Below are positions 1 to 47,294 of a stretch of DNA of 64,000 bases, piece after piece (position 1 is the first letter of the stretch; each line of letters starts with the position of its first letter). The notes below the pieces were generated by a model, which was not told the origin of the DNA, made no database searches, and worked only from the letters and a program-made list of their open reading frames with translations. The position numbers and the translations under genes were made by a program. Origin of the DNA: Amphiscolops sp. MND2022 (Eukaryota); contig OZ076409.1 of NCBI GenBank assembly GCA_964187785.1, positions 41,108,001 through 41,172,000 of the forward strand, read 5' to 3'.

Positions 1-777
1 AGACGCGGCAAGCCGACTACTATCATCAGCGATAATGGTACTAACTTCGTTGGATCAGCAAGAGAGTTGAAGGAGTACATCAACTCATGGAATCAAGATC
101 AAATAACGCCAGAGCTTGCTCAGAAGCACATTGTATGGAAGTTTAACCCTCCTGGCGCACCCCATTTTGGTGGTGTATGGGAGAGATTAGTTAGAAGTTG
201 CAAAAAGGCAATGGTGGCTATATTGGGTAATCGATCTCTTACAGATGAAGTTTTATTGACAACTATGTGCTTAGTGGAACAAACATTAAATGCGCGTCCT
301 ATTACTCCAGCAAGCGATGATCCTGAAGATCTTGAACCACTTACACCGAACCATTTTATTATTGGTCGAGCGAATGTTTGCATTCCCTTTATTCCAAACG
401 CAGAGGTTTATGCTAACCAAAGAAAGATGTTCAGATCAAGCCAAGCTTATGCAGACATGATTTGGAACAGATGGGTGAACGAATACCTCATTTAGAACAA
501 TGTAAGAGAACAATGGAAGGAGCCAGAGCCAAATATTCAAGTTGGAGATCTTGTTTGGCTGATAGAAGACAATGTTAGAAGGTCTCACTACAAGATGGCG
601 CGAGTCATTGAAGTATTCCCTGGAAAAGATGGTATTGTGAGATCAGCACTAATCAAAACTGTCAATGGAACCCTGAAACGACCTGTGGTTAAACTGGCAC
701 CACTTTTTGAAAAGCGTTTTCGCGCTGAAAACGGGGCCGGCATTGTTGGCGCCTCAAAATTTGTTCCGAAAAATTGA
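1..777 (+). pseudogene. BEL/Pao LTR retrotransposon pol, integrase core and C-terminus (5' end outside window), one premature stop
   Basis: Frame 1 reads RRGKPTTIISDNGTNF...WKFNPPGAPHFGGVWERLVRS...LNARPI...PLTPNHF, then TAG at 493-495, then in-frame VGDLVWL...GKDGIVRSA...KRPVVKLAPL, all typical BEL/Pao integrase motifs. Confidence 0.93.
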
Positions 778-4174: not shown

Positions 4175-7036
4175 CAATAAAATTTTCAAAATTCGAACAG
4201 TTTTCACGCCGAAAGTTCACGCCGAATTTTAGGGTTATATGCCGGAAATCGGCGCCGAAAACGCGATTTTCGTGCCGAAAATTGTATTTCTTGGCTGCTA
4301 CACAAAGCTTGCCTCCTATTGGTTTATATTTACGCTGCAAGTTCGACGTTGCTTGCGTGGTTGCTTGCTCGCCTACAAGCTTGCTTGCTCGCCTGCATGC
4401 TTGCTTAATTTGGTGTTAATTGACAGTCAGTGCAGTGCCTAGAGTTTTAGAGAATGAGTCAGTACACTCCACAATTATTGGGCAGTGGAAACAATTAATT
4501 GTAGTTAAAAACAATTATTGTTACATAGAGTTCTGGAACAGTCAATAATTTAATTTATTTTAATACAAAATTTTTTTAACACACCCCTGAAGACAGCCGG
4601 TGGACTGCGATTGGTTTCCAACCCGGGAACCCTCTTTCGGTTAATTAATTTTGATGATTAGAATTAGCGAATTCTCTGAAGAATTTTCTTTATATCAGAG
4701 CACCATATTAGAACGTTTTTGCCCTATACGGTTTTCAGAAGCCAGACAGGCGGTGGTCCTGATTTTTTTCTAAATGACTGTTATTTCAACAGTTACAGGA
4801 TGGGATACACTGGAGGGAATTTATGAAAAACGGGATCGCACCTCGGGACATTTTTTTCAGCATATGAGGCCTGTGCCGGGCGAAAAAACACTATCCTTCC
4901 GACCCTTTTTTGTTCTCAATGACAGGCTCGGGCATTTGTAAAGGTTTTTGTTCTTAGCTTCTGAGATAAGTTCATAGTCTTTTTTTTCAGATCCTTATCG
5001 ATTCTTCAATCGGTTACATCGATTTTTTTGAATGTTTCGACTTTTTCAGACGTTATCGCACTTTCAGACTAGATTCCCAGCGGTTTTTCAAACTTTATTT
5101 CTTTCATTTTTGTCGCGCCTGTTCGGGTTGCTCTCGAGTTGCAAGTTAAGCAACAGCTCTGATCAAACAAATTTTGTGTTGAACGAGGAGAACATGCGTT
5201 TCGTAGTAAAATTCGTAGTACGCGGTTTACGATTGATACGATCATGTTACTGTTTTACTGATAGACATTTTAGTGCTGTGAAAGTATCTTTAATCACATT
5301 TGAAAATTGTCAAAAAACTTTTTAAAAAGGATTCTTAGATTCAGTAAGGAAGGTACAATTTTGTTTTCGTCAAAAGAAATTGGTTAGATCTATTGTGACA
5401 ATAGAACAGATTAAGAACTTGTATAGGAGAAATCGCCAAGCCAACCTGAATCAAATTCGAGCAATCAAAAGCATGCTAAAAGACATGCCGTCTAAGATAA
5501 TCATTATAATATATTACGTTTGAACAGATAATCAGTTCAACCTTTGTCAAAAACAGGATCACAGTCTCATACATCCTCTCTTCCACAACTTTCGCCAAAC
5601 TGGCTCAAATTTTTGGAAAATTCAAGCTGAAACAGCAAGTAAGTTTCTCTCAAAAATCTCAATGAATGATCAGTCAACATTTGCTCAGTGAAATGAGGTT
5701 GATGCTAAAAAAAATCAGCGACAGTCCGGGGCAAATATTGATCCGGAAATACAGAAGCAAGTGTTTCTTGGATTGGCGGTGTATATAAAAGGGCCTGTCT
5801 TTTAGTGATAGTGGTATAGAGCAATCTAGAAAGATAACCGAACCTGAATCAGAAGCAATAGTCGTTTACTAGAATACAAGAACTCAATGGTGCGACCAAG
5901 AAAAAATTTGCTGGAGCACGTTTGTGACCTCAGCTTCATCTGTTTAATAAGTTACAATAGTTTTATCGATAGAAACTTCAAGACACTTGGAATTTGGTTG
6001 CTTCAATGTTGATGTAAGTAATGGAAAAATTGACTCGACATTGGGAACCTGCTGCAGAAAGATTTTTTGTTGTACATATTTCGACGCATAACCCTACACT
6101 TTTTGAAAAGAGCGGCATTGACTGCTAACCGCACTTAAGACTTGCAAGACCTGGAATCCGCTGTTTTACAAGACGGCTTTCAAAGACACATTTTATAACA
6201 AGTGCAGCGGAATCCGCAAGCTTTTTTGCTAGATTCCGGGGACAAATCTCTTTACATTAAAGTTGTAGTGGATTCCGGAGGCAAATCTTATTATATTAGA
6301 CAGCAGTGGATTCCGCAGTCACTGTACCGGAATCCGGGGTTATATAATAACACACAGCATGAAAATAAAAACAGCGGATTCCAGAGACAAGCTTTCATAA
6401 AAAAGAAGGAAAGACATCGGAATCTGCTGCTGCGACAGCGTATTTCGCAGTCGCAGCAGTGGATTCCACTGTTGTGCAAGCGAATTCCGCAGTTTTTAAC
6501 AACCGCTGTTTTTAACAGCGCATTCCACTGCAAGATACTGCAAAATCAGCACCAAATCATGTTCAATCAACACTTACAACTCGTTTTCTGTTTTAGGACC
6601 CTATATATTCGTTCTTGGTCATCACCCACCAGCACACATCAATGAAACGTCGATGCAACACACACAATTTGGATTTCAACGGAGTTTTTGCTTAATGTTG
6701 GCTGGTACACAGAAACGTAGCGAAAAGCAGCAGTTGCGACTATTCAAAATCCTGTGGAGTACTCATTCAAAGATACACTCAAAAAGACCAACAGACGCTG
6801 CGGGAGTCCCTCAAACTGTTAAATAAGACGAAATCGCGAGGCAATAGCAATGAGATTGAATAAGAACGAGTTTGAAAAACAAAACACTCCTGGATTCTGG
6901 TCGCCAGTTTCCATTCAAAAACAATGTTTGCGATCCAAGGTCCAATGATGTCCATGAAAACTTGGTTCAAAATCGGGAAAAACGCCCAAGAATAGAACTC
7001 GTGGGTTTTCAGGAGAAAGGCAAATTATTTAATTTT

Positions 7037-7240
7037 TAGTTGAATCAATTTGAGTCAATTTGTGTCAAATGTTTTGTAATGAAGTTAATATATGTGTATA
7101 TTATCAATGAAATAATTTTTATTCAAAGCAACATTTTAGTTCTTAGTTGAATCAATTTTTGTCAATTTGTGTCAAATGTGTTGTAATTAGGTTAATATGT
7201 GTTTATCTTATCAATTGAATATTTTTTTTTCAAGAGCAAA
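7037..7240. repeat. Tandem duplication, ~105-bp unit, 2 copies
   Basis: TTAGTTGAATCAATTT..GTCAATTTGTGTCAAATG at ~7037 and ~7143. Confidence 0.8.
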
Positions 7241-8620
7241 ATGATTGAGGTAGTTCGAAGTATATAGCATTCGAAGATCAAAACTCGTGATCGTTCCAAA
7301 CGAGAAATTTGCAAAAACCCAAACTTCCTAAGTTATATTGAAGTACTTTGGGGTTTTCAGTTTTCCCCCAACCACTAAAATTTCTTCGGAAATAAATACG
7401 TTCGAATTATCTGTTTTTTTTGAGACTCAAAACTGGATGCTGTTGATTTCTCTATCAGGAATTTGTGACTTCATAAGGAAAAAAGTGTGAGCAAAGTTTG
7501 CATCTGTATTCTAAACTATCACCTAGAAATAAAAATCTAAACTTGAGGGTTTCTGCTTTGCCTTCAAGTCTTTTTGTTAAAAGATTCCACCAAAATTGGT
7601 GGTGGGGGAGAAAAGAGCTTTTATTTAGTCACTATCTAGTTGTCAATAAAGCAAAAGCAATTTCAAGAAGCGTGTTCAACTCTTTGTGTTTGAGAGAAGA
7701 CATTGTTGAGGCCTACACTTGTTTAAAATTCTGAACTAAAATTTGTTCGGTAGAATATACGTTACATATTACATAATGTCATATATTATACGTATCTCTT
7801 TTACGTATCTATTACACATATCTATTATATTTGTATAAGTTGTATTAAATCTTGTATATATAGTCAAAAAGTGTGTCGGTAACTATAGCGACGCGCCGAC
7901 CACCTTAAGCGCGCAGGCGCCAATCTCACTCTTCCCTGTGTTTGAGAGAACGATGCATTGCTCTCATGTCTGAAATTGCACGACCACAGAATAAAATAAA
8001 CAAACCGTTTTGTCAGTATGTGATTAGTTACGACTAAAACAAGTTAAGCTCTACCCTTTACAGTTCACCTGCCTGCGCCTATTGGATTATTCTCGTTTGA
8101 AGCCATTTGAAAAATCTTAATTGAAAGTCATTCTCTAGTCTTGGTCATTGAAAGTCAAATCTTAGTTGAAGAAATCTTATTCTCCAAGTCTATTTAATCA
8201 TACTCTTCTTTTTATTCTAATCAAGGTGAGTAACATCTAAGTTTGTCAGCTTAATCGGCAGGCTCAAGATTGGGCTTATTTAAGGGAATCTCTGTATAAG
8301 ATAAAATAGCTGCATTTAGAACAAGATCGGGTTCTTTTAAGGGAATCTCTATATTTAAAATAATTTTATAAGACACAAGTTGATGTTATATATAACTTTG
8401 AATCGGGAAAGTAGGCCGAATACAAAAAGCTCGATACAAAAAAAACGTTTCAATCATAGATGTACTTTCAGGTAGCTTCAAGTAAAGAAATTAACGTTAA
8501 CTCTATCATTTCTGACGTTTTGATTCAAAACAAAAATTAAAACGAGTATGTTCCATCTGAACAAACACTTGATGAGTTACTAAATGAGTATTTTAAAATT
8601 TCAGGTCTACAAGCAAAGAT

Positions 8621-9578
8621 TTATTCGGTAAAGAGTTCTTGGGCTGTCCTATCACTATAATCGAAACGTAGTTGCTCGAAGGGTTCTATCTGTCGTCTAG
8701 CCTTCATTACTACGACTCTCATAGGGGATCTGTATGGACCAGGTGGGTGCTAGTTGACTTCATGCTGGCTTCTTTGTTGTCAGCGTTGTTTCTTCTCTGG
8801 GTTGCGTGGTTGGCTAAACGACCCATACACAAATTCTTTGGATGATCCACACAAATCTCGGAACTTGCATCTATAAGTCGCTTTGGTGGACCTGCAACTT
8901 CCATGACAAACTCGATCGTGACGCCGGGTTGTTGCACGTACTTCTCAAACCTCTGGCCGGTAATGAATTTCCCCTCGGTAGTCTAGATGTATTGTGTCTT
9001 TCTCCAAATTTTCAAGACTGACAATGCCTCGACCAAGTTTGATGAACTGGGTATCGCAAAGTCACTCCCAACTTTGGTTATAATTCGATCTTTCAAACCT
9101 ATCTGGTTTTCGTATGCCAACCTGTCTCCGCTGCCGATGATGGCATTGAAATGCGGCCTGCAATTATTGGATCGTGGTGATGCGCACTTCAACTGTTCAA
9201 AACACAAAGCATTCAAACTCTATAAATTCTTCTAACAACCATCGATCGCTTAGCATGGGGCAGCTAGAAAATTCTGCAGGCTCCACATAGATTGTGGTTC
9301 CTGCTGCTAGTGCTGTTTCGTCTTCTGTCTTCTCTTGCGAGGAAGAGATGGCCTTTGTAACAGCATCCACTGTCAGCTATTTAACACTTTTATCCATCAT
9401 TGGTGGTGCTGCATGCTTTGATAGGAAACACGCCACAGCACGAAAGAACATTGTTCTCTGCTAATATGTCAGAGCTTCCCTCTTCTCGTACTGCTGTACA
9501 ACGTCCCTGATGGCTATCTCAAGTTCTTCTCCAGTGGTCTCGCCGCACGTAGCCCTGACAGAAGTCTTCGATGTTCTC
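8621..9578 (-). pseudogene. SETD8/PR-Set7 (KMT5A)-like SET-domain gene, frameshifted
   Basis: Joined across two frameshifts: LGRGIVSLENLEKDTIHLDYRG / ...RLIDASSE...MGRLANHA... / MRVVVMKARRQIEPFEQLRFDYSDRTAQELFTE*; matches SET motifs GxG, YxG, GRLxNH and ELxYDYGDR, with no post-SET cysteines. Confidence 0.8.
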
Positions 9579-9879
9579 TAAATGAATACAAATTTCAAAG
9601 TCAAGTTCAAACATTAGAATGAAAGTCAAACAATATTTATTTCAACAAGTTCAATTACAAATTCAACTGCAAAATACTTTTCAAATTCTACTATTAATTG
9701 AAGCTACTATTTGATATTTGATGTTTGAAAATCATTTGACAATTAAATCCTAGGAAACATGAAGTGTTGTTTTCGAAGTTTCCGCATACTTTATTCCATC
9801 GTGCAAACAGTTTGGGATGTGTGACATGATCCGTCTTTTCTTGAAAGTGAAGGCCGAAATAAAAAAAACTCCCCGACAG

Positions 9880-11660
9880 CTCAGCCAAGGCGGCAGTTGG
9901 ATATTTTCCCGAGGTATGGTACAGAAAACTGACCACGCAATGTATTAAGGTTTGTCTGCGGATTCCGCTGTACATGTATTAACATTTGTCTCGCTAACAG
10001 CGCAATTCACTGTTTTATGCTACTAAGCAGATTTGGATACTTTTTCGAGGAGTAGGACAGGAAACTGAAAACGCAATCTAATACGATTTGTCTGCGGATT
10101 CCGCAAATATGTATTAACATTTGTCCCTAAATACTGCACTGCATTTTTAGAAGACATTACTATGGGACATAAAACAGCGGATTTCACTGTTATAAAGAAT
10201 AAAACTGCTTTGCTGCTCCATGTCGTTCTAGTCGGTGAAAATCTCCTGCTTCAGTTTGAAGGTTCCAATTGAAATTTGAAAACATACCTGTGGAGTATCA
10301 ATAGTTGTAGAGCTGCCTGACTTTTCTGGCTTTCTTCAAGTTGGTCAGTCGGCGAAGCTTCAAGGGGAGGAAGAAAAATCTCCGGCGAAAATTCAGGTGG
10401 TGAAAGAACGTCACCATGCATGGCGTGTTGAAGTTCGCGCGAAATTCAATCCGTGTTGAGCCATTGCGTTGGTTTCAATCAAAATTTGTCTGGTGTGAAT
10501 ATTGGCGAACTGCAACAGGACTCCTTCCGGAAGGGGGTTGTCAAATAATCATACGATCGGGAGAGAGGGGTTAATATTGCAACTGGATGATGAGGTAGTG
10601 TAAATGTAATCGTGTCGGTTTGTTGTTGCACTGGCGTTGAGGTAACTAGTTGAGGAGATTGAAGTTCTGTCAAGTTTCCTAGATCTTTCAATGGTTGTCG
10701 CTGAATTTGATGAGTTTGCAGAGACATTGTAGATTCCTTCGTGAAAAAAAAGCTCTACAATCGACTGATTACTAGTAGAGCAACTTTATGTTATGAATGG
10801 CATTATGATATTACTTTACTGAAACTGCTAAGTACTAAACTGATAATTACTATCATGGTAATTTAACTCTTCCACTTTGGCAAATTACTAAACGCCTCAT
10901 CAGACGCTGCCAAAAGGAAATAATAATGATTATGTATTAATATTGATTATAATTCTATAATTATTGCTATTATAATTTTTGACAGCGCGTGCTGCGGTTT
11001 TTAATCATTTGGAAGTGTTAAAACCACACATCATTTATCATTTGAATCAAGTAATCAGAACTTGATTCGTTGTTCGTCCTTTGTTCCGAAGGAAGGTCCG
11101 ACAAGGTTTCAACAGGACTTGAAAGATGACCGCGTGAAACACAAGTACCTCGGATTGGCCGGCTGACATTTACGGCATGAACAAAACCCTATGTAAAATA
11201 ATTATACACAATCTATGTTACACAAACTAGAACAACATGGAGAACCAAACCTTTTTTTCCTCATAACAGCGGAATGGTTTATATTCCGTATTATTGTCAT
11301 CAAAAAAGCAGTGCGGACCTTAGGGAAAAATGTTAAAACATGTACAACAGAATCCGCACACAAATGTTGATACATTGCGATTTCAGTTTGGTGTACCAAA
11401 CCTCAGGAAATAATCCAAATCTGCTTAGTGGCATGAAACAGCATTCAGCAGTTGGCGAGAGTGTTGCGCCCTATAACAGCGAACCCGCTGTTTTATATTT
11501 CATACTGTTGCCTGCCATAAAAGCAGTGTGGAATTTAGGGCAAATGGTAATACATACATGTACAGCGGAATCCGCAGACAAATGTGAAAACATTGCGTTT
11601 TCAATTTCTTGTACCATACCTCATGAAAAATTTCAAATCTGCTCAGTGCATAAAACTGTG
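9880..11660. repeat. Inner inverted repeat pair, two ~130-bp units per side
   Basis: TTTGTCTGCGGATTCCGC..ATGTATTAACATTTG at ~9950 and ~10087; reverse complements at ~11325-11440 and ~11535-11655. Confidence 0.8.
10288..10727 (-). pseudogene. Ser/Thr-Pro-rich coding exon with D-box-like motif, possibly the 5' exon of the SETD8-like gene
   Basis: ATG at 10727, RQPLKDLGN (RxxLxxxxN), several SP/TP sites, coding-like continuation to an AG|GTATGT donor near 10288. Confidence 0.35.
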
Positions 11661-12406
11661 TTTAAGAATTTGTTCTTTTTTAAAACCCTGTCTTGAAAAG
11701 GAACTTTTGAAACCAGTAATTTTAAATTTCCCACCCTGAAATCTAAATTAACTAGAATCCAAGTAGAACCCATAAGATTCTATACGTGTCTTTGTGTCTA
11801 TATTGTCCTATAAAGGTCTTCAAGTGTCTATAAGCGTCTATTGAAGCTTTTGTGGTCCGTCCCTCCGAGGGACTTGGGAGTCGTCGCAGGATGCTTGAGG
11901 CAGTCGCAGGGGGCTTGGGAGCAGTCGCCATCATGGTGAAGTACATTGCCCAAGTAAAAACTTGTCCGGGAGATAACCGGAAAACGGAACTCATTCCGGT
12001 GACCCAGAGAACGGGGAACGAAACTGACACCCATAGAAATTTCAGTTAGAGTTTAAAACTTACATCTAACGAGACTACAGTACGGTAAGGCGAGGCGATC
12101 TCTAGATTTTGCAGTTTGTGCAGTGCAATCAAATCAAATAGAGTAAATATCACGTAACGATTGTACATCTGCCATACTAATTTGTGCATTGTGTCATGAT
12201 TACATGTAAGACTGATGCATAGCTCTGGAAGTTGGAAAAGTATCAGTACGCGCGGCATGTAAGACTGCTGCTTACTTCTGGAATTAGGAAAGTTATCAAT
12301 AATCTCTTGTAAACTAAGACCAAATACTATTGCAGAATTATTGAGCAACCTCTGCATTCATGAGCAAGATTGAAGGAAATTGTATCAATCCTAAAAACTT
12401 AACTGT

Positions 12407-12850
12407 TTGAAGGATCTCACTGGAAAAATTTCGCTATTTCAATGCCCCACGTGCCAACTAACTTTCTTAAACAAGGGTAATCTGACCCGGCACGTTAACC
12501 AGATTTACGGTAAGAGAGAGCAGGAGCGCGGAACAAGAATGAAGTGCATGTTTTGTGGCTCTCTTACAGATGGCTCATTCTTCAAGGACGTGCAGCAGAC
12601 TGCTGATCTTGTGCTGACACTCCGATGCTGGAATGCTCGAAATGCCCTGACAGCGGATGTTCGAGCAACCTTACTTGAGCCCACACGAGAAAACTTTGTT
12701 CTCGTAAGAGACACTTACCCGGGGTGCAGGAAGGCCTTCTCTGCAGAAGCGAGGACGAGGAAGTTCTTCGATCAACCGCCTATATCTAAGACGATTAAAC
12801 GAGAAGTCAGTGCGACATCGACATCAACACCGCGGTGGCCGGTAATTTAA
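12407..12850 (+). pseudogene. C2H2 zinc-finger-containing fragment
   Basis: FQCPTCQLTFLNKGNLTRHVNQIY with the second His replaced by Tyr, plus a second CxxC (CMFC). Confidence 0.55.
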
Positions 12851-14518
12851 CCGAACATTACTTTAATCCAATATAATGGTACTTTTTGTGCATGAATAAG
12901 AATCAAAATATAGTTTTTGATTTTGAGTGATTTACATATTTGAGTTCAAATGATTTATCTTTGAACAGGTTACTGAATGCAGCAGCCCTGTGCAGCATGC
13001 TGGTGTTGTTTTATCCTCCTCCACCATTCACTTTGCAACAGTGGCGGAAGAAGCTATTGCGGAAGAGTCCATTGTCTTTCTTGAGGAGAAGAAAGAAGAA
13101 GAGGCAATCGCTTCCATTGTAGTTTTAGAAGCCTTCAAGGTTGCAGAAGTCAATCACATTCAAGTGAAAGAGCCCAAAAGTGTATGTATTTTTATGTATG
13201 TATGTTTCATGTTTCATGTAATACTTTTCAGGATGTGTAATGTCTATTGATTTCCAGTTTTAAAAGTATATTGGGTTGGAGGGATTTAAACAACTAATAA
13301 TTCTGTTGCCTAAGAAAAAGTGACAACGGAAACGACAACGTTTGCACAAGAGTGTATCACGAATGCCAGTGTCATTTCCAAAGCTGGGCAGATGCACGCT
13401 AACCATGCGAAGGCTAAACATGACAGATACGCACCTCTTGAAATCGTTGGCTAGCATCTGGGAACTACGTGACATTTTGAGTCAAGTAAGAACTTCTCTG
13501 GATTTAAGAATGAAATCTCTTCTCAGAATTTAAGAATGAGATCTCTTTTCCAAACTCTAGATCTAATCAGATTTGAGTCTCTGGATTCACGAATACGATA
13601 TCTTCACTAGATTTATATCTTTGGATTGAAGAATAGGATTTTCTCTTCTGAGGATTGTGATTTGTATTAAACTTAGATTCCAAATGCTACCTCGATGCGG
13701 AGTGGCATTACACTAGAAGAAGTCACACAGGAACTGCTGTCAGACCCGGCCTTTTGGACGGGGAATATGTCCTCGTCATCCGACAACGTTCGAGGTGAGC
13801 ATAGTGAATATAACTGCTAGTAGAGAAACAATCATCAATTTTGTTCTCTTTTATGAATTTAAGGATACATGTACCTGACCTGATGTTTATTAGTTAGGAA
13901 GGGAAGAGAGTTGTATTGGGGAACAGAGTTACTGAGGTGGTGGAGTGTGACTCCTCCCCCTCCAAATTCTACAACGTCATCGACGCCGAGGCAAACAAGT
14001 GCCCAGGAGCCTCATTCAAGAAGCCCAGCGATCTAGACGAGGTTTCCCTTGGGCACACGAACTGGAACGAGACACCTGCAGAATTGCGTCCAGAGCGTGA
14101 ATTCAATTATTCGCTCGTTTCACAAAATGGCGCGAGGTTCCACCAAGATTTTTCATCCGAAAGTGTCATGTATTATCTGGCCATAGGTTTGTGCCAGTTT
14201 TTAGTACAATATATAAAACAAAAATAGTGTAATAAAACATGTCGTATTTCATGACTAACAAACTATTGTTACAGAAGTTGAAGTTGTCCATGCTGTGAGG
14301 CCCACTGCTAGAAACGTGGACTTGTTCAAGGCGTTCAAACATCTCCGCAGGCATGTAATATTGTTTATACTTACACTACACAGCGTTTTTTTCTGTTATG
14401 CATGTATGACTAATGACAGGGAAAATTTTATTGTTGTTAATGATTGTTTAGAAAGCATTTCTTCTTTGGCACCCAAGAGGACAGGCGCTGATTCTTCAAG
14501 CAAAGATGATCAACGCGG

Positions 14519-16200
14519 TCAACGCGATTTCCATACACTTTCGAATAGGTTTGTTATGTCTGGAATCATATCAGAAATCTCTCCTTTGTTGGCAATCGCT
14601 GAAAGTGCTGCCCACCCAGAAAGTGATGCTGCTCCGACAGTCTTCACTTTCTGTCCAGATTTGGTAGTCGTATCGAACTGGAAGTGCGGTTTCTTCACAT
14701 CTCGTTTGGTCAGATTTTCTTCCAATTGGGCAAGTGACTCTCTCTCTTTAGGATGCTTGTCATCAACAAGCTTCCGCGCAATTTTTTTCAAGTTATTTTC
14801 CACACATCTGGTTATCATGTGCGTTAAATCAGGGCAAACGCATCGTATGTCGTCGTAGCTTACAAGAGACGTTGCAGGTAGATCAGTGAGAAATGGAACT
14901 GTAACTTTGCTTCGGTATCCAGATTCTGGATCGACTGTTGTAGGTAGAAACGTGTCGTCCGTTCCCAGAAACAGTGGCATGAGTGACGGGAAATCTGAAC
15001 TGCGATCGTTTGAGATTCCAAGAATTCTGCCTAAATTCTGCCCAAAATATAAGACTCTGCTGCCCAAAAAAAATTAAACTCTTCTCAAATTACAGCACAA
15101 ACATTACAATGACAGAAACTCTCTTAAATCCAGAGTTCATGAATCAGTTTGCAAATAATTTCGGCCACCGTGGCATCTAATAATTTGACAAAACATCTAT
15201 CGTTCAGCAATAAATTGGAGCAAAATTAAATGTTGCTCACAGGAGAAAGAACGGATTGTCTCCGCTCTAAGTCAATTTGACGCCAACTTTTTTCAATGCA
15301 ACAGTCTGCTCGAACGCCCACCCTGATGTTTGGTCCTCAACTTTCTCACATCCCACATTTTGCTCCAAAGCAAACCTGCTGTCCTCGGTACGCAGCAAAA
15401 CAGAAGACACTGTCAGATGATTGCACACTTACTTCCTCACAGATCAATCTGACTGCCAGCCTTGTTACTTCTGTTCCCCCAAATGCGAAAGCATCTCCCC
15501 AGATATAAACCTTCAATCCGGAGATGTTTGTAGTTTGAAGGATTGCGTATGCAGCAAAATTGACGCATCGAACAACATCCACTCGGAATCCACTAAGGGT
15601 CCTTTTCGGATTGCAGAGTTTCTTGAAATGTTGGGTGAATTTGGCATTGGACGTGACAACCGTACGAATTGAGGGTGCCATGTTAATGCCGAGGCCAGGA
15701 ACTGACAATCGAGAACGGATCAGATTGATTACGCCATTTACGTTACCAGACTTTTTATTAATTGCCAAAGCGTCGCGAAAGTCAGAACAGCTACCCCTGT
15801 CCTTGAAAAATCCGCTAATGAGTCCCCCTATTATGTTCATTTGCTTCTCGGATGTTCCGTTCTGCCTCTTCCTTTGATCAGCTTTTTTATGTGCTGCTTC
15901 AGTCAACCCACGAACACTAATCCCTTTGTACCTGATGCACTAAATGACTTGTCTCCGGAAGCTCTTCAAGCTCAACTTTTCCCCGGCTTTACAGGCATCC
16001 TGAGCCTTTTTACGAAATGAAAATTTCGGTCTGCTCTTAATTCGGTTGGCTCGTTTGATGGTTCCTCCAGATGTGCCAGAGGTAACGGGTATCGACAAGT
16101 TGCTAGGGGCAGAAGCAAGAATGGGGACGTTATTTGGGACAGATACGTTGTAAGGGTCAACATCAGGAATTAGATCTCCATTACGATACATATGCCGCAA
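14519..16200 (-). pseudogene. Transib/Chapaev (RAG1-like) DDE transposase, decayed
   Basis: Motifs in expected order: IWGD (D1)...QSSDSVFCFAAYRG-(frameshift)-DSRFALEQN...LT*SGDNPFL (D2)...ILG...CPDLTHMITR (DxxH)...SLSG; in-frame stops at ~15940 and ~15268. Confidence 0.55.
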
Positions 16201-17119
16201 AAGTGTGTTTTGTCATCCAGTGTAAATTGTACGTTTCGGAAAACGAGAGCGAACCGTATTCTAGTCAAATAGTGCACCGTGTTCATCGCGGATTGTGATG
16301 CACAATGTAACAAGAAATTATGCATGGTGATCATTGAGCGTGATTGTGTGAAGTAGTCATTCATTGTATTTTGACTACGCGTTACACCAAATCACAAATA
16401 GTAACGAGCAAAACACGTAACGCGTATATGAAATAAGTACGCGTTTTTATTGGCTTTTAGTCGATTTAGCAAGATCTTGCTTGTTTGTTGCGGCATATGT
16501 ATCATAATGTCGGGAGAAAAAAGGAAACGAAGTCTTTCCTGACTCTTTTCCATGCGTGATCTCTCAACCCGCAAACTATGATAAGTTTCATAATTTTTGC
16601 AGTTGTGTAGACTGCTTCCCGTCCTCCTTCTGACCAAAACTTCTGGATCAAGGGAGGTACCAGTAACAATTTGTTTGACGGCTGTAAGGATACTACGATG
16701 CCATTTGATGGAATTTATTTCCGCAAGAGATATCTTCTCTAGAGTGTCGCTGTTGATAAACTGCCTATTCGACAATCAAAAGTGTTGATCCCAAAAACTT
16801 TGTGTATAACTTGATCCTGCCATTGCAGATGAAGGTGAAAATCAAAATAAGAATGGAGAGGTTAATATCATCTCAGAGGTTCGCAACTCAACTCAAAAAA
16901 CACGTTAAAGTGTTATTTGACGCTTTTTCAAATAATTTGACGCCTTTTCAAAGTGAATTGACGCTTTTCAAAGAATGTAATAAGGCGTCTTCAACCGAAA
17001 GAGTGGTTTAGCAATTCGGTTTTACTAAAATTTCTACTGGTAGTCAGTCATTGTATTCATTATACTTTTGTGAATTTACTCTACCTGTTTACCTATTTAC
17101 CTGATTATTATTTCCCAGT

Positions 17120-17431
17120 ATGTCTACGCCCACGGACACTTTTCGCCCAAACGAAATTGTTCACGATATTGATGAGAGTATATCTAGGTGGACAAAGGCT
17201 AAAATCATTGGCATTGTTAGCGACTGGTCTGTTAAAATAAAGTGGATTGTCTACACTTCCATTTATCCTTCAGAAACTATCGAGGTGCCAAAGGAAAAGC
17301 GTAGAGATATGTCGTTATGGAAGCTTCGAAAAGTTATAGAAAAGACACAATTCTCCATTCTTACCAGAGAGGACAGACAACAAACACCACGGGCAGTACA
17401 ACTCGAGACAGTGTTCATGACGATGATGTGA
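17120..17431 (+). CDS. Small Tudor/chromo-barrel-like ORF
   Basis: FRPNEIVHDIDESISRWTKAKIIGIVSDWSVKIKWIVY resembles the Royal-family pattern F..GE.V...D....W..AKI....V.I.W.GY. Confidence 0.4.
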   Translation: MSTPTDTFRPNEIVHDIDESISRWTKAKIIGIVSDWSVKIKWIVYTSIYPSETIEVPKEKRRDMSLWKLRKVIEKTQFSILTREDRQQTPRAVQLETVFMTMM

Positions 17432-18052
17432 GTTTCAGTCCAAATAAAGTTTTTATTATGGAAATCAGTTCGATTCAAAACGGATTCGCGACTGAGGAAT
17501 CCGCTGCTGCCTAATTTAATAAGATTTGCCGCCGGATTCCACAAACAACTTAATGTAAAAAGATTTGCCCCGGGAATCCAGAAAAATGCCAACGGATTCC
17601 GCTGCACGTCTTTTAAAGTGTGTCTTTGAAATCCATCATTTAAAACAGCTGATTCTAGGTCCTGTAGGTCCTACATGCTGTTAGCAGTCGATTCCCTTCT
17701 TTTCAAAAAGTGTAGGGTTTTGCATCGTATTGTGACATGTACATTGTAAGATTGTATTTCTGTGGGAATAGGAGAAGAGTAGTTGGAATACCTATTAAGA
17801 CTTAGTCCGTGTAAGATTATACACCTGTGGATTTAGGAGAAGAGTTATGTATTAGGACTAATTTTTGTATCTGCGCTAATTAGGATTTATTCCATGTAAG
17901 ATTTGTATACCTCTGGATTTAGGCATTTTTGAAAGTTTCTCTGCATTTAGTTTTAACCTTTTATTTATTTAGATGACTTCTTAGACGAATCAGAAGACGT
18001 TGCCGTTGTAGATCATGGACGAATACTGCTTAATAATCCGTTCCTACAATAA

Positions 18053-18865
18053 ATGAGCGTTTTCGTAGAAGGCGAAGTGCCTCGATACCTTTCTTACAGC
18101 GTACTACGGAACCCCGTCCAGCAAGTTAGTGCCAACGTCGCAAAAGTAGAAGACGACGATGACGACTCGATTCCTCGTCTGCCGGCTCGAAAGAAGCCTC
18201 GTTCTCAGAAGGAGAAGCCTTTAGAAGTTGATATGATCAACGCAAACCCCGTGCTTCCGGACGGTGACATCAGAACAAGCGTGCCGTTGACTTGCGCTCC
18301 GCGCACAAACGGCTTCCTTGTTATAGGGAATAAGGGTTTAGATCGAGGATACACTTGCACTTTTGAGATGCTGGAATACGTCATTTCAAGAAAGACGGCA
18401 TTTGTCAGTTTAACATGGGATGAAAGTGCGGACTTTACGGGCCGAATTCAAGCGTCTTCAGTAAAGCTCCGAGAAGACAATTACATCACTGTGGACCCTG
18501 TGAATCTAGACAGAATGGTTTGTCCCATTGATCGAGGCTATGCAGTATTTTCTGCCATCAAGCGGGCTTTTGGTCTCTGTCGAAAAAAAAATTCTGTGAA
18601 TTTCAATGTTTGCCCCGCTATAACTTTCACTAGGCGATGTGCTGGATTCGAAGCAGATTCGGCTCGGGATAATGTACGTATGTCAAAAGTAAATCTGTCT
18701 AATAGTAATTATATCCATAGGCGATTGTTAACCAAGAGTAGTGAAACATTACAAGATGATAGTTTTTTTGAGTTCATGTTATTGTTTAGGTCAGGTTTGC
18801 TGCTCATATTGAAACTGGATTCAAATTGGAAATTAAAAGGTCAATTAGGAAGATCATTAAATTAA
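18053..18865 (+). CDS. Unknown 270-aa ORF, transposon cargo
   Basis: Long open frame with acidic then basic (RKKPR) patch; no family recognised; 3' part may be intronic. Confidence 0.35.
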   Translation: MSVFVEGEVPRYLSYSVLRNPVQQVSANVAKVEDDDDDSIPRLPARKKPRSQKEKPLEVDMINANPVLPDGDIRTSVPLTCAPRTNGFLVIGNKGLDRGYTCTFEMLEYVISRKTAFVSLTWDESADFTGRIQASSVKLREDNYITVDPVNLDRMVCPIDRGYAVFSAIKRAFGLCRKKNSVNFNVCPAITFTRRCAGFEADSARDNVRMSKVNLSNSNYIHRRLLTKSSETLQDDSFFEFMLLFRSGLLLILKLDSNWKLKGQLGRSLN

Positions 18866-19976
18866 ACATTAAATAATTGTTAACTAAGAAAAGTGAAGCA
18901 ATACAAATAGATAGTTTGTCGAGTTCAGTTATTGTTTAGGTCAGGTTTGCTGCTCATATTGAAACTGAAATTCGCGGTTGCCGCCGCTCGTGGGATTAAG
19001 TCTTTGGAGAGCGATGAGATATCGTGTTAGGAGATGGAGAAGAATCGCTGGACACACTCATCAGAGCAATCCGATTCTCAGAAACCCAAGACTTTCTCTT
19101 CCGAACCATTAAGGTTCAGATAAACTTTTGCGAAGGACGCTTCCGAAACGAAGAACAATATCGGGAATTTGTGAATGTTAACTCTAAACACAATGAGGGA
19201 CTCTAACTATTAGATATTTTGAGTAGAATGTATATTCATGTGTTATTATGTGTACTGCTTGTTTGTATGCTAGAATCAAGTTATAAAACTTGATCGTCTA
19301 TCCTAATTTCAGGTAGATAGTGAAATACATGTAGTAATAGTAGCATGTAAGCCTATGTTACAAAATGGAGACAATAATCGTAATCCGAGAGACCATAGTA
19401 GAATACATGTAGTATCAGTACCATATCATATATTAGGCCTATATAGATAGGTCTATATTACATATTGGAGACAGTAATCTTAAACCCAGAGACAATAGTA
19501 GAATACATGCAGGCCCATAATACATCATGGAGACACATCACTATCTTCATTTCAGAAACTGTAAACACCCAATTAAACACAAAACACTGTAGCTGATACG
19601 AGCTTTACAGTATTATAATACAGAATTTAATATACTACTGACTCAAAGATTTAGGTATTCTTGATAATTAGATTCAATGGAAAATGCTCGCCAAATAATC
19701 TTACGCTATCCCCCCTTCGCAATCAACACTCGTTATTCTCCGTTTCTAACGTTCTAGCGTCTCTAAAGGTATGCAGCATGCAAGCTTTATACAAGCAATA
19801 GTCTGCGGAATCCGCTGTCATACGACCCGAAACAAATGTCGCGCACAGCTTTCAGCGGATTCCGTTTCACAAAACAAACATATTATTACATGCTTACATT
19901 AGTCTGCGGAATCCGGTGTCACTGCCCCGGATTCCACTAACACTGTCCCGAATTCCGCTTTTACTGCCCCGGAATG

Positions 19977-20124
19977 ATTTTGCTGAAAATAATCCTAAAT
20001 TCAACTAGGATTGAATCTCAAACAACTTTTATTGTTGCTGAGTTTGTATCCATACAAACTCAGCAACAATAAAAGTTGTTTGCGATTCAGTCCTAGTTGA
20101 ATTTAGGATTAATTTCAGCAAAAT
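19977..20124. repeat. Near-perfect palindrome, 73-bp arms and 2-nt loop
   Basis: 19977-20049 is the reverse complement of 20052-20124 with 3 mismatches. Confidence 0.95.
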
Positions 20125-20454
20125 ATTTTGACTAATTTCATTCTCAGGATACAATACAGAGAAACGAACAAACAAACAAACAATTAAGTGCTCACTGTGT
20201 TGTTGTGCCATGGTCTTTAAGAGATATCACATTTTGTGGTGCAGTTTATAACAAGTTTCTCGGCACTGTTCAACAAACAATCTTTGTGCAGCAGGTGCGC
20301 AATGCAGACTTCGAGTCAGTTTTTTCATTACTTACATGAAGCAACCCAATTCCAATTGTCTAGAAAATTCTATCATCGATAAAACTATTGTAACTTATTA
20401 AACAGAAGCTGAGGTCACACACGTGCTGCAGCAATTTTTTTCTTTCGTGTTGGC

Positions 20455-20554
20455 CATGGTACGGTCTTGGCATGATCATGATCATGGAATGACCATGATC
20501 ATAGTATGATCATACTATGATCATAGCATGGTGAGTATGTTTGGTTAACCTGGG
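20455..20554. mobile_element. Right end of a CCCAGGTTAACC-type CMC MITE
   Basis: CATGAT/ATGATC subterminal repeats ending in GGTTAACCTGGG. Confidence 0.45.
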
Positions 20555-20619
20555 AAAGAAAAAATAAATAACTCGGGCATGGAGAAAATGTATGTTAAAG
20601 GTTAAAATATAAACTGATT

Positions 20620-22406: not shown

Positions 22407-23434
22407 CCCGGGTTGACCCTCCATGGATATCTTAGTAAGATCTTGGCAAGATCTTGCCAAGATCTTGGGAAATTCTTAGCTAAGATCGTGACAAGATATT
22501 GCCAAGAATTGCAAGATGCCATGGTAAGATCTTATCAAGAGAGCCATGTTTCCAAGAAAAATCTTACTAAGAAGGCCAATATGGCAAGAAAAATCTAACT
22601 AAGTAGCCGAATATGGCAAGAAAAAAAATGCTACGAACTGCTCGATATCGAGAAAAAGTAAAATCAGAAAACCATTTAGAGTTATGCAAAAATAATCTAG
22701 ACATCACTCTGATTGAACAAAATTACTGAATGATTTTTACAACCATTTCGATATCGATTTTTTTTCAATTGCAAAACTGTCGCCAACAACGGCGTCAGAT
22801 AAGCCTTGAGCTGTCATTACCCAAAATAGAGCAATAAGTAATAAGGCTGCTAAACAGGCTCAAAGAAAGCTGGAAATATGATTCTTACAAAAATTTCAGG
22901 ATTTTAAGGTCTTTCCTTTGTAACTTTCCGATAGTGGATCTGGACGTTTGAGAGCATATTTCTCCGTCTCTGGAATCGACAGGAATGATAAATTACAAGT
23001 TTTGAAAAGCCCTCGAAATTACCTTTCATTTGGTACATTCGGCATTTTTCAGTCTTAAAGAGGTGAGGAATTATTAGGATTCTCGTCAGAATTTCTGAAG
23101 CCAGACTACGTTATCGTAATTTTTCACGCATTTTTGCATGCAAAATTTTTTCAGCAGGTTTAAGCATTTTGATTATGAAAACGAGTAGAAATAGTCGTTG
23201 TTGGGTGAAATGAGCCTTTAGATTGAGTCTCGGCTGCTTGTACCGAAGGTATAGTGTTTTTTAATAATCTTAGAATTTTGTCCATCGTGATAAGATACGA
23301 TCTTGGAATAAGTATTATCTTAGTAAGATCTTAATAAGAATCTTGCCATGGGATCCATGGCTGCCAATATGTACTAAGAATTCGGCAAGATCTTGCCAAG
23401 ACAGCCAAGATGCTAGTAAGAGGGTCAACCCGGG
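22407..23434. mobile_element. Non-autonomous CMC/EnSpm-type MITE
   Basis: Perfect 15-bp TIR CCCGGGTTGACCCTC, 2-bp AA TSD, TCTTGGCAAGATCTTGCCAAG subterminal repeats. Confidence 0.9.
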
Positions 23435-34900: not shown

Positions 34901-35659
34901 CTCGTTTCGGTGACTATTCAAATCGTAGAATATTCAAACGCCGAAAAAATCAAGGCTATTCAAAGCGTCGAAAGAATTCTATAGCAGCGATTATTTTCAG
35001 ATTATAAATTGAAGAGGTTAGCATATTTGTTGTATGGCTCGGTCGCTTCGCTCCATTCGCCAAGTAGCAACATTGAGGCATGGCCATATGGCACGTCGCT
35101 CCGCTCCGCTCCGCTTCGCTCCTGCATTTAGGGCACTAGGGGTATGTGAGCATAGCTGATTACATTATCGTAATTAGTTCGTCGCTTGTGCTGTATTCAT
35201 TTTACTGAATTTGATGGGCTCCCCTAGTCGAGCCTGCATGAACTTTTTGCATGTTGCATGAATGCATGCAGGGAAACTTTTTAAAAAACCTAGAAAATTC
35301 AGGGATCCTGCAGGGAAAAATCTTGTAAAACTTCCCTGCATCTTGGAAAATCATGTAAAACTTTCCTGCATCTTTGAAAATCTTGGAAGTTTTACCCTGC
35401 GCTTTCAAAAAAAAGCTCTGCAACCTAATAAATCTGCGGAAAAATGACCAATTTTCAGATGAAAACTTTTAGAAAAAGTCACTGGAACCTATGAAATTTT
35501 GAGCAAGAGTTCACTTGAAAACGATGACTTCGCTCGAAATCCTCTTCTGATAGAAAACAAAAAAAATAGAAAAATACACTAAATTTGATAAGTGAATTTC
35601 AAAACAAATTATAAAAAATGTATAGAAATTCTAAAACATCAGTTTCAGTCTTAGCTGAG

Positions 35660-38600
35660 GTTTTCGGGAACCATCTGACATCAAGAAACGGGACATCAAA
35701 CTCGTAGAGAATCTGCAATAGTTGCGAGCAAGCTTCCACGACAGAAACGATTCCACGAGAATGCTTCTGAAACAGAAAATGTGTATCAGTTCACTGATTC
35801 CAGAAAACACTCTAAACTGGGTAAAAAGACAACACAATGAAAAGTTTGGAAGGCTTTTCAGTAAGAATGAAATGTGGTCCTTTTCTGACATTAGAAACAT
35901 GGTTCTTCGCTGATTCGGTTACACCAAAGACAAATTGCGCTGACAAAAAAGTTCAGAAACGCTTGCTTTTTGCAACAGAATATATGTTAATAAAGCCCAA
36001 AGGGTCCCCCTTTTACATTTTTCGGCACTAGGCGACATTTTCTGAAAGAAAAAAATTCGCTTTTGCGCTTTTTGAGCCTTAGATATGGCGCCGACTTTAG
36101 ACGTTCCCGTCTTGTTCCTGATTCGGTTACACCAAAGACAAACTGTGCTAACAAAAAAGTTCAGAAACGCTTGCTTGTTGAACGAAAGACAATAAAAAGA
36201 TGTTTTCCAAGGCGAAGTATGTCATAGTCCTTTTGAAAAATCTCGCTTTTTTTCTGATAAAAAGAACAATACTGCCCAGCACGATGGTTGAATGCGGAGG
36301 TCCACAGAAAAGAGGTTTTTGGAAGCCACCTGACATCAAGAAACGGGACATCGAACTCGTAGAGAATCTGCAATAGTTGCAAGCAAGCTTCCACGACAAA
36401 CGATTCCACGAGAATGCTTCTGAAACAGAAAATATGTATCAGTTCACTGACTCCAGAAAACAGTCAAAACTGGGTAAAAAGACAACACAATGAAAAATTT
36501 GGAAGGCTTTTCAGTAAGAATGAAATGTGGTCCTTTTCTGACATTAGAAACATGGTTCTTTGCTGATTCGGTTACACCAAAGACAGATTGCGCTGACAAA
36601 AAAGTTCAGAAACGCTTGCTTTTTGCAACAGAATATATGTTAATAAAGCCCAAAGGGTCCCCCTTTTACATTTTTCGGCACTAGGCGACATTTTCTGAAA
36701 GAAAAAATTCGCTTTTGCGCTTTTTGAGCCTTAGATATGGCGCCGACTTTAGACGTTCCCGTCTTGTTCCTGATTCGGTTACACCAAAGACAAACTGTGC
36801 TAACAAAAAAGTTCAGAAACGCTTGCTTGTTGAACGAAAGACAATAAAAAGATGTTTTCCAAGGCGAAGTATGTCATAGTCCTTTTGAAAAATCTCGCTT
36901 TTTTTCTGATAAAAAGAACAATACTGCCCAGCACGATGGTTGAATGCGGAGGTCCACAGAAAAGAGGTTTTTGGAAGCCACCTGACATCAAGAAACGGGA
37001 CATCGAACTCGTAGAGAATCTGCAATAGTTGCAAGCAAGCTTCCACGACAAACGATTCCACGAGAATGCTTCTGAAACAGAAAATATGTATCAGTTCACT
37101 GACTCCAGAAAACAGTCAAAACTGGGTAAAAAGACAACACAATGAAAAATTTGGAAGGCTTTTCAGTAAGAATGAAATGTGGTCCTTTTCTGATATTAGA
37201 AGCATGGTTTTTTGCGGTTTCGGTTACACCAAAGACAAATTGCGCTGACAAAAAAGTTCAGAAACGCTTGCTTTTTGCAACAGAATATATGTTAATAAAG
37301 CCCAAAGGGTCCACCCTTTTACATTTTTTGGCACTATGCGACATTTTCTGAAAGAAAAAAATTCGCTTTTGCGCTTTTTGAGCCTTAGATATGGCGCCGA
37401 CTTTAGACGTTCCCGTCTTGTTCCTGATTCGGTTACACCAAAGACAAACTGCGCTAACAAAAAAGTTCAGAAACGCTTGCTTGTTGAACGAAAGACAATA
37501 AAAAGATGTTTTCCAAGGCGAAGTATGTCATAGTCCTTTTGAAAAATCTCGCTTTTTTCTGATAAAAAGAACAATACTGCCCAGCACGATGGTTGAATGC
37601 GGAGGTCCACAGAAACAAGGTTTTCGGAAGCCACCTGACTTCAATAAACGGGAAATCCAACTCGTAGAGAATCTGCAATAGTAGCAAGCAAGCTTCCACG
37701 ACAGGAATGATTCCACGAGGATGCTTCTGAAACAGAAAATATGTATCAGTTCACTGATTCCAGAAAACAGTCAAAACTGGGTAAAAAGACAACACAATGA
37801 AAAATTTGAAAGGCTTTCCAGTAGGAATGAAATGTGGTCCTTTTCTGACATTAGAAACATGGTTTTTTCTGATTCGGTTACATCAAAGACAAATTGCGCT
37901 ATCAAAAAAGTTCAGAAACGCTTGCTTTTTGAACGAAGGACAAAAAAAAGATGTTTTCCAAGGCGAAATATGTCATAGTCCAATCGAAAAATTTCGCTCT
38001 TTCGTCTAATAAAAAGAACAATACTGCCCAGCACGATGGTTGAATGCGGAGGTCCACAGAAACGAGGTTTTTGGAAGCCACTTTACATCAAGGAACGGGA
38101 CATCAACCGCGTAGAGAAACTGCAATAGTTGCAAGCAAGCTTCCACGACAAACGATTCCACGAGGATGCTTCTGAAACAGAAAATATGTATCAGTTCACT
38201 GATTCTAGAAAACAGTCAAAACTGGGTAAAAAGACAACAGAATGAAAAATTTGAAAGGCTTTCCAGTAGGAATGAAATGTGGTCCTTTTCTGACATTAGA
38301 AACATGGTTTTTTCTGATTCGGTTACATCAAAGACAAATTGCGCTATCAAAAAAGTTCAGAAACGCTTGCTTTTTGAACGAAGGACAAAAAAAAGATGTT
38401 TTCCAAGGCGAAATATGTCATAGTCCTATCGAAAAATTTCGCTCTTTTCTCTAATAAAAGGAACAATACTGCCCAGCATGATGGTTGAATGCGGAGGTCC
38501 ACAGAAACGAGGTTTTCGGAAGCCATCTGACATCAAGAAACGGGACATCAAACTCCTAGGGAATCTGCACTAGCTGCAAGTCGGCTTCCACGGCAGAATT

Positions 38601-40504: not shown

Positions 40505-41103
40505 TCATAACAGAGATTTTATTAGTTTATTGAACAAGCGCGCTGCATGGTAAACCCCGAAGTCATTTAAGTGAACATTGTCTTCAAGGAAATGTCCGTG
40601 AGCGCCAATGGCTCGAGGACTGTAGTAGCACTCAGGAAATGTTTCTACTAATAAATTGTTTGTTTCTGTAACGAGCTCTCGCTCAACATCTGGGCGAGGG
40701 ATCATCCCAATTATGTGCAACTGCGCATTGGCATTTCGCTTTTGCAAAAGAGTATTGAAAATTAGGAAACTGTTTGCAACATCTCCTGGACTCTCCGCCT
40801 TCAGGTTTTCTTTGAACGGGTGCTGGGAAAGGTCATTATTCCCACAAAAAAGAATAATATGATGGTAATGATCAACCAGATCGAGCAGTTTTCCGAGATG
40901 CCTTGCCCGCAATCCACTTACTGCGCACCAGTGGATATTGCTACTGAAAACAAAATTGAATTAGAATCAATCGAACTGCAACACTCACAGCAAGCGAACG
41001 AACTACTTACTCAAGACCCATATAATTGCGAAGAAGTGGATCTTCGGAGAAAGGCACTATGCACCTTTTTAAGTTGGAGTCCCCAATAACGAGAACAGTG
41101 GTG
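40505..41103 (-). CDS. SGNH/GDSL hydrolase; exons 41103-41011 and 40943-40505, first exon not located
   Basis: Spliced (GTAAGT...TTTCAG, 67-bp intron): VLVIGDSN...VSGLRA...LFCGNNDL...GMIPRPD...DNVHLNDFG, all four SGNH blocks intact. Confidence 0.85.
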
Positions 41104-46500: not shown

Positions 46501-47294
46501 AAGAATTCCTGTACCATGGAATTCAATATGGGGACAAAGACAATCCATGTTATTCACTCCAAAGTACTCTGGCCCGTATTTCACTGTTATCTCTTCACCT
46601 CTCGTGATATTTCGCAGTAGTCGCAGCGACATCAATTGATCTTGGAAAACAACATGATTGGCTGGTGTCAAACAACAAGTTTTGATGTTTTATCATAGGT
46701 CCTTCAGGGTTTTATTAAAACCATCAATTTATACCTGATACCAATTTAGGCAGTATCAAAATTTTCTCGGATTCATTCAGTGTTTTCCAACTTTCGGGAT
46801 AACCAGTTAATTTCAGGTGTTTTCAATTTTATGAAAGAATTTAATGAAACCGTTTTATTGAGCGAACCATGTTTGACAATATAGACTGCATTCGGCCAAC
46901 ACGAATGGTTTACAAACGACAAAGGGCCTAACATCAGCTCTTCACCTTTGCGCTTGAAAATCGAAACGCTGATATCTTCAGGAAAATCGTCAGACTTTGG
47001 TAATTTGGCAAGAAACCCATCCAAATTGATAAAAGATTCTTTTTCTATTTCCTTCTTTGCGAAAACGCCGAGATTCGTATACCTTAGTGAAGGTAAATAA
47101 TCAACTGGACGGAACTCGAAATCAATACAAGCCTCTGCATACTTCTCAGTCATCAAATCGACGAGATTCTTGTTGATCTTATCACTCGAATTTGGTATCA
47201 GAACTTTGTGAGACTGCACTTGGGAGTTGTCGAACATCTGATTGGTAACATAGGCGTCAGCGATTGCTAGTTCTTTCCAGGTAAATTTGATCAT
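43579..47294 (-). CDS. SUV4-20 (KMT5B/C)-like SET domain fused to CACTA/EnSpm transposase; exons 47294-46868, 46640-45624, 45228-44423, 44178-43579 (~949 aa)
   Basis: SET: KELAIADAYVT..FD....SHK, LMLGPLSFVNHSCWPN, LRNITRGEEITVKYGPEYFGVNNMDCLC..GTG. Transposase: NTDGASPF..S.WP, LWKGKGKP, DMIAK..QFNGCNGCIYC, DAMHQVFLG, WKARD, GPLW..SAFAFES. Exon phases 1,1,0 are consistent (2850 nt); third donor is non-canonical GG. Confidence 0.88.

Follow-up and report, generated by a model that had tools for sequence, protein, structure and literature searches.

DNA transposons that carry a SET methyltransferase gene are already a known concept, since such genes have been described in the oomycete Phytophthora, in its HarbingerS and MuDR families (PMC12730594, available text, citing Kojima and Jurka 2014). 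That article also assigns EnSpm, Mirage, Chapaev, Transib, ESTA and RAG1 to the CMCT clade, whose defining features are a C(2)C motif between the second Asp and the last Glu and 5'-CA..TG-3' termini with a 2-5 bp duplication. A SET domain and a transposase also occur together in SETMAR (Metnase), which is a host fusion gene; it belongs to another SET class (28 bits with the profile A2 described below). An animal transposon gene resembling SETD8 was not found in the literature covered, a scope that stops short of Repbase Reports and most subscription journals, and the available text of PMC3212892, PMC6431247, PMC4411706, PMC2200798, PMC10629977, PMC9406493 and PMC3537659 contains none.

We analysed a 64,000-nucleotide stretch of the genome of Amphiscolops sp. 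MND2022 (here referred to as the window) and found what is probably the pseudogene of a lysine methyltransferase derived from SETD8, kept as a standing accessory gene by a family of large cut-and-paste animal transposons. As in HarbingerS and the SET-bearing MuDR elements, as far as the available text describes them, a DNA transposon with terminal inverted repeats (TIRs) bears a SET methyltransferase gene, but here the element resides in an animal and its transposase cannot be recognised as Harbinger or MuDR. In contrast to SETMAR, SET and transposase are separate genes in this element. The encoded protein family is like SETD8 (PR-Set7, KMT5A) in its SET fold, N-terminal helix, short C-terminal helix and lack of a cysteine post-SET, and in its GRG, YHG, RLxNH and final DY motifs. 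However, the switch Tyr is fixed in SETD8, whereas the window family has Phe, Trp or Tyr there and about 25% identity; it also has a C-x-H-x-C insert, another substrate-groove strand and an unrelated N-terminal region, and is multi-copy and element-borne.

The last coding exon of the broken SET gene lies at 8621-9192 on the minus strand and encodes a pre-SET helix, the SET domain and a short C-terminal helix, followed by a stop. This SET-domain remnant (9192-8621) is confirmed as real, because its frameshift-aware alignment to the last exon of L002, a metagenome locus where that exon is intact and which served as the reference, scored 396, compared with 24-38 for the controls (12 shuffles and 6 other stretches of the window). 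Identity to L002 was 53% (87/164 amino acids), and the same procedure gave 90/122 identical residues with the relative P0002 and 56/70 with P0029. The motifs on which the sequence-only reading had based a hidden SET gene were all recovered by six-frame translation in minus-strand pieces: GRGI..DYRG at 8948-9061, RLIDAS..GRLANHA at 8722-8982 in a different frame, and ARRQIEPFEQLRFDYSDR at 8624-8749. The gene is, as that reading held, not a single ORF, its pieces lying in separate frames that the frameshift-aware alignment to L002 joins. The damage had been underestimated as two frameshifts; there are three in the last exon (at about 9080, 8974 and 8726), plus a TGA at 9062-9064 where the relatives have Trp. 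An ending of the LxYDYGDR type had also been proposed, and the actual one is LRFDYSDR, with the terminal stop TAA (8623-8621) 8 codons past DYSDR. Two further stops, at 9461-9463 and 9377-9379, interrupt the second exon. Sequencing error alone is an unlikely source of the homopolymer frameshifts, since they come together with three stops and a deletion, and the window copy is a dead pseudogene with no present-day activity.

Searches with isolated pieces recovered part of this signal. In the ESM Atlas, SET clusters made up 29 of the 30 neighbours that the middle piece had, and the last piece gave a weak Pfam SET match (E=0.1). The other six pieces of 8624-9577 had no match in Pfam, the middle piece on its own had none in the PDB, and a word-based protein search with it returned none among 7 candidates.

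The last exon closes a longer, intron-containing and internally deleted gene that extends over about 10727-8621 on the minus strand. The second exon (9266-9577, minus), with its two stops, encodes the start of the family N-terminal region; it matched the corresponding L002 exon by tblastn (E=3.7e-9) and reached a frameshift-aware score of 114, with 8 shuffles at 25-33. It spans columns 11-82 of the 301-column profile of that region, and because the remaining roughly 220 columns are absent, some 220 codons have been deleted ahead of the last exon, near 9200-9260. Position 9578 is the acceptor of an intron and not the start of the gene. This GT-AG intron (9578-10287, minus; 36% GC) has donor and acceptor sequences and contains one cluster of the GCGGAWTCCGC repeats of the element, and in L002 an acceptor occurs at the matching codon. 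Upstream of it lies the probable first exon (10288-10727, minus; 45% GC), with a donor and a Ser/Pro/Thr-rich translation from an ATG at 10727 that includes a stop and a shift of frame. This exon did not align significantly with relatives; the long relatives P0022, P0041 and L002 likewise open with a low-complexity stretch. The full-length relatives P0022 and P0041 measure 640-664 amino acids, and the SET gene of L002 looks intact, with four exons. The closest relatives (74-80% identity) are apparently split at the Cys before GRLANH, and their protein ends suggest an intron there that has no counterpart in the window copy. Spliceosomal introns, along with the remains of retrotransposons nearby, are evidence of an animal host.

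With the frame 8722-9219 as query (the single stop in it read as X), phmmer retrieved 54 relatives at E<=0.001 from 1.84 billion representatives, of which 39 match Pfam SET at E<=0.01 and which have no other domain in common. These relatives make up a family of their own, and among the solved classes SETD8 comes nearest to it, both by profile and in fold. When profile A2, built from 24 relatives and the three window pieces, was searched against 177,635 PDB sequences, the top 14 were all SETD8/KMT5A (57.4-51.6 bits), followed by Cryptosporidium SET8 (47.1 bits) and MLL1 (32.7 bits), and single relatives searched without any window sequence gave an identical order of classes. P0022 was modelled with AlphaFold (mean pLDDT 57, with the SET part mostly at 70-90), and the model aligned to SET8 over 146 residues at 27% identity (VIA Z 14.7, rmsd 3.8), with a Z of 11.9 for MLL1, and Foldseek also placed SETD8 best, with a narrow lead over MLL1 (4.1e-9 vs 7.6e-8). 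Helices on both sides of the SET core, the one after it being short, are part of the fold match. The best matches are therefore not to another SET class, SETD8 coming first by profile (57 vs 33 bits) and by fold. In structural alignments, identity to human SETD8 is 23-27%, about 25%. A cysteine-rich post-SET is not present in the family, in agreement with what had been proposed from the window copy: within 20 residues, 31 of 36 tails are free of Cys and the other 5 have one.

The GxG, RxxNH and final aromatic-D-Y motifs were found in the window pieces. Among the relatives, D[YF]HG occurs in 37/54 and R[LFI]xNH in 46/54, 36 extend as far as the final Tyr and 35 of these have it, and all 15 sister sequences have DYHG. 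The window copy keeps the DY of xYHG and has a frameshift at the next codons. We take the Tyr of xYHG to be the active-site Y245 of SETD8; the Y245F entry 3f9z scores lower, which is consistent with this numbering. Since the catalytic and cofactor motifs are otherwise kept, intact members of the family are taken as enzymes, a reading that the sequences suggest. Ahead of GRLxNH, a C-x-H-x-C insert is found in 43 of the 46 relatives that cover this part, and may be a metal site.

The residue that precedes the final DY, the switch position, is Phe in the window copy and in all four of the closest C-terminal relatives. Across the family, where 36 of the 54 sequences reach the position, it is Phe in 17, Tyr in 10 and Trp in 9. 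The Phe of the window aligns with that of PDB entry 3f9w, a Y334F mutant of SET8, and this entry heads the PDB list for L002. The Y334F exchange turns SET8 from a mono- into a dimethyltransferase (PMC3356298, available text), and 3F9X is tabulated as Y334F with a dimethyl-lysine H4 peptide (PMC3529403, available text). The strand lining the substrate groove also differs from that of SETD8 (EFVMEV in the family vs CYMYYF), hence H4K20 should not be assumed as the substrate. The switch Phe and the groove strand both fail to support the earlier designation of the gene as an H4K20 monomethylase. The broader description as SETD8-like fared better, SETD8 being the nearest solved class by profile, by single relatives and by fold, but it probably does not extend to orthology. 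The window gene is probably not a SETD8 orthologue, because it has Phe at the Tyr334 switch and because its family has the Cys/His insert and an N-terminal region of its own; the multi-copy state also argues against orthology. It looks like a gene derived from SETD8 that is not a member of SETD8.

Related, uncharacterised SET proteins occur in fish (P0136 and P0137 in Channa striata, P0138 in Gadus chalcogrammus). They have a homologous SET region (hhalign, 99.3%) with SETD8 as the nearest PDB class, and they share the Q-x-W pre-SET, DYHG, a C-x-C-H-P insert and Phe or Trp at the switch. They differ in keeping a SETD8-like YLYFF strand, and they form a separate clade in a midpoint-rooted tree of 28 rows that includes no SETD8 orthologue. 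By eye, they contain putative tyrosine-recombinase-like motifs. The idea that the N-terminal region of the window family is a tyrosine-recombinase remnant shared with these proteins found no support: the three fish N-termini scored no better than 90 shuffles against the N-terminal family profile, and hhalign joined the fish proteins to the family in the SET part only. No recombinase match for the N-terminal region was obtained in Pfam, PHROGs or NCBIfam, and this part of the P0022 model is of low confidence.

The SET gene lies inside an element of about 14.5 kb with TIRs of about 180 bp. The left TIR (5891-6076, plus) is alignable over 5898-6076, its terminus at 5891 being a guess, and the left end reads TGC; the right TIR (20267-20449, minus) ends in GTG at 20447-20449, which is 5'-CAC on the other strand. 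Between the arms 5898-6076 and 20267-20444, 154 of 188 columns are identical (91% of the ungapped columns), which bears out the earlier placement of the gene between the inverted repeats of a 5893-20449 element. No clean target-site duplication was found at the element ends; the flanks ATGG and TTGG agree at 3 of 4 positions, and several exact 3-5-mers occur at shifted ends, in a number that chance can give. Clusters of short palindromic repeats of the CATGATCATG and TCTTGCCAAGA types are located at 20450-20555 and 22429-22507. They are probably small non-autonomous elements, and the first of them abuts the right end, where it may hide a target-site duplication. A near-perfect palindrome of 148 bp (95%) is found at 19977-20124, just inside the right TIR.

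The element contains other inverted repeats. An inner arm (6075-6320, plus) abuts the left TIR and begins with CAT, preceded by TA, and its partner (17490-17739, minus), located in an intron of the neighbour gene ORF-C, ends with ATG followed by TA. These arms of about 250 bp are identical at 81% of the ungapped columns (6075-6320 vs 17490-17739 reversed). A further inverted pair, 9897-10240 and 11218-11660, agrees at 74-85% in pieces and carries the motif GCGGAWTCCGC, which has 17 matches within 5891-20449 and none elsewhere in the window, and clusters of which make up the inner inverted pairs. The outer and inner arms were also considered as one long TIR split by an insertion, and this was rejected because they have diverged unequally (91% vs 81%) and ORF-C spans the inner arm. 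Whether the outer or the inner repeats are the ends, the SET gene is enclosed together with the transposase-like gene.

The transposase-like gene is decayed, with stops and frameshifts, and was delimited at 14522-16823 on the minus strand by tblastn of P0078 and P0088. Its product has 11 relatives, ten of them at 79-84% identity and one at 47%, which by eye retain W-G-D, S-G-D and D-x-x-H motifs, and we take the spacing of the two Asp motifs and D-x-x-H to resemble that of RAG1/Transib-type DDE enzymes. We call it only transposase-like, because it has no library match (none at a useful E value in Pfam, PHROGs, NCBIfam or the PDB), its structural model failed (pLDDT 32.5, unusable for fold classification) and the C(2)C motif is missing: inspection of P0088 and of 14522-15073 in the window did not reveal it, in sequences that end before the region of the last Glu is clear. 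Compared with the CMCT clade, as the available text defines it, the element is alike in its 5'-CAC right end and in the spacing that recalls RAG1/Transib, but differs in the missing C(2)C, in the TGC of its left end and in having no library match for the protein.

The conserved neighbour gene ORF-C (17120-19200, plus) has two or three exons. ORFs of L002 match it at 17135-17332 (E=3.7e-9), 18005-18685 (5.2e-12) and 18943-19185 (7.8e-17), and its homologue there lies at 664-2283 of L002, on the minus strand. ORF-C had no useful match in Pfam, PHROGs or NCBIfam; by eye alone, the small domain at its N-terminus resembles a Tudor domain and, if it is one, ORF-C might be a methyl-lysine reader beside the writer. 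An ORF piece at 12395-12847 (plus) matches C2H2 zinc-finger families of Pfam (zf-C2H2, E=0.001-0.005, below the curated cut-offs) and is probably the start of another decayed gene of the element. In locus L005 (1645-4250, plus), the frame that comes after a more distant member of the SET family has a weak C2H2 match (E=0.019), which recalls this zinc-finger piece.

The nearest of the SET clusters counts 45 members, found on contigs of up to 855 kb, and the transposase-like clusters have 54, 20 and 18 members which, with 7 singles, make 99 records. Both kinds of cluster are found on contigs of many different sizes, pointing to dispersed copies. For at least 12 of the 22 listed SET records, the longest contig equals to the base that of a listed transposase record (9,713 bp and 32,440 bp are among these sizes), a common contig thus being read from equal size and not from the DNA itself. 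The chance of such a coincidence is 6e-8 if the assembly measures 100 Mb, and 1e-4 if it measures 50 Mb. The transposase side of this comparison consisted of 52 of the 99 records, so that about half (53%) is the ceiling, and 10 of the 22 SET records had no size match among the listed transposase records. L002 (5,845 bp), one of five metagenome loci recovered, has its SET gene head-to-head with the ORF-C homologue, the two genes being oriented to each other as they are in the window. Neither a transposase nor a TIR was found within its 5,845 bp, and the other four loci (1.6-4.3 kb) contain neither neighbour gene. Together, the equal-contig test and the L002 neighbour lead us to favour a standing gene of the element over a recent capture. 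The earlier description of the gene as cargo stands in that it lies inside the TIRs and travels with a transposase-like gene; as a recent capture of host SETD8 it is unlikely, because the family is diverged (about 25% identity), has its own N-terminal region and shares its neighbour with a distant locus. It seems to be a gene of long standing in the element and not fresh cargo.

Other explanations of the locus have to be weighed against a standing accessory gene. The mobile unit might be the inner segment 6075-17739, lying within or beside a second element that owns the outer repeats; the SET gene would still be accompanied by the transposase, but the boundaries of the sequence-only reading would be wrong. 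Inverted arms of 250 bp with CA..TG ends and TA flanks fit the ESTA/CMCT pattern (PMC12730594, available text), but the right inner arm sits in an intron of ORF-C, whose parts are intron-joined in L002 too, the inner arms are more diverged than the outer ones (81% against 91%), and the outer arm does not resume past 17740 (score 24; controls with a mean of 23 and a maximum of 37). We consider this arrangement unlikely. An expanded host gene family or a segmental duplication, with no transposon involved, is the least probable of the explanations and would agree with the lack of a clean target-site duplication and with a transposase that no library recognises; it has to contend with TIRs of 180 bp, with about 99 near-identical transposase-like records, many of them truncated, and with the joint decay of all the enclosed genes.

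The remaining alternatives concern the origin of the SET gene. If the SET/ORF-C pair were a module of some other kind of mobile element, such as a tyrosine-recombinase or virus-like one, nested beside the transposase, the adjacency of both genes in L002 with no transposase between them would be expected. The same explanation could draw on the presumed recombinase-like motifs seen by eye in the three fish proteins and on the weak Atlas matches of the transposase-like protein to recombinase clusters (0.82-0.84, under the lead threshold of 0.9). It is nevertheless quite unlikely, given that SET co-occurs with the transposase family in at least 12 of the 22 listed records, that the 108 ORF pieces of the window include no recombinase, capsid or polymerase match, and that the N-terminal family profile does not pick up the fish N-termini above shuffles; nor was a relative found in viral contigs, where 0 of 40 pattern matches were confirmed as such. 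A fragment of host SETD8 that was captured recently and then passively carried and amplified (Pack-type cargo) appears very improbable to us. That SETD8 is the nearest solved class and that the window copy is dead and deleted are what such a history would leave, but identity is 23-27% to human SETD8 vs 53% to L002, the family-specific insert is found in 43 of the 46 relatives covering it, and the N-terminal region and the neighbour gene are common to a distant locus.

With a standing accessory gene as the preferred reading, intact copies would produce a protein of about 640 amino acids that binds S-adenosylmethionine and methylates a lysine, and those with Phe at the switch would add two methyls rather than one. 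The leading candidate for the target, though short of an even chance, would be K20 of H4 on the element or close to it; a different lysine, in a histone or in another protein, is a less likely target, and a non-catalytic binding role, or no role, is somewhat less likely again. The outcome would be a chromatin state of the element shifted in its own favour. H4K20me2 is tied to 53BP1-dependent end joining. H4K20me3 is tied to repeat silencing (PMC9406493, available text), and through these links the element could gain by shifting the H4K20 state.

Another element of the window contains a second, frameshifted SET gene, at 45613-47321 on the minus strand. For both of its pieces the top PDB match is SUV420H/KMT5B (E=0.003 and 8e-5), and it has post-SET cysteines. 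The frame downstream of it and 44420-45241 resemble, by eye, an EnSpm/CACTA-type transposase, and short inverted repeats at 34909-34946 and 58071-58109 may bound this element. Tandem arrays at 50400-54070 and 35650-40170, the one a 607-bp unit repeated six times at 97% and the other a compound 445/652-bp array, lie inside the putative second element. A 151-aa frame at 40508-40960 (minus) resembles by eye a piece of an SGNH-type hydrolase, with no Pfam match. At 1-492 (plus) we found the last part of an integrase frame from an LTR retrotransposon, which by eye resembles BEL/Pao, and at 60557-63851 (minus) a GC-rich frame of 864 aa with no Pfam match, which is probably another retroelement.

Between them, two elements in one window carry the two H4K20 methyltransferase classes. 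It is conceivable, though doubtful, that animal DNA transposons run an H4K20 pathway of their own, with a retuned SETD8-derived writer distributed from invertebrates to fish and a SUV420-like writer in another lineage within the same genome. If this were true, the SETD8-derived writer would make H4K20me2 directly from unmodified H4 at element loci, and the elements would set a mark that steers silencing, or the repair of their own excision breaks. The window copy itself is of value as a pointer to the family, because it is dead. That family supplies natural variants of the switch (Phe, Tyr and Trp) whose products are directly measurable, and many animal annotations such as "KMT5A-like" or "SET domain-containing" may be transposon genes. 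Writing the H4K20 mark is normally the task of one essential host enzyme. In plants, fungi and oomycetes, transposons are known to bring chromatin-modifier genes of their own (PMC12730594, available text), and a SETD8-derived family in animals would extend this chromatin-modifier arms race to H4K20.
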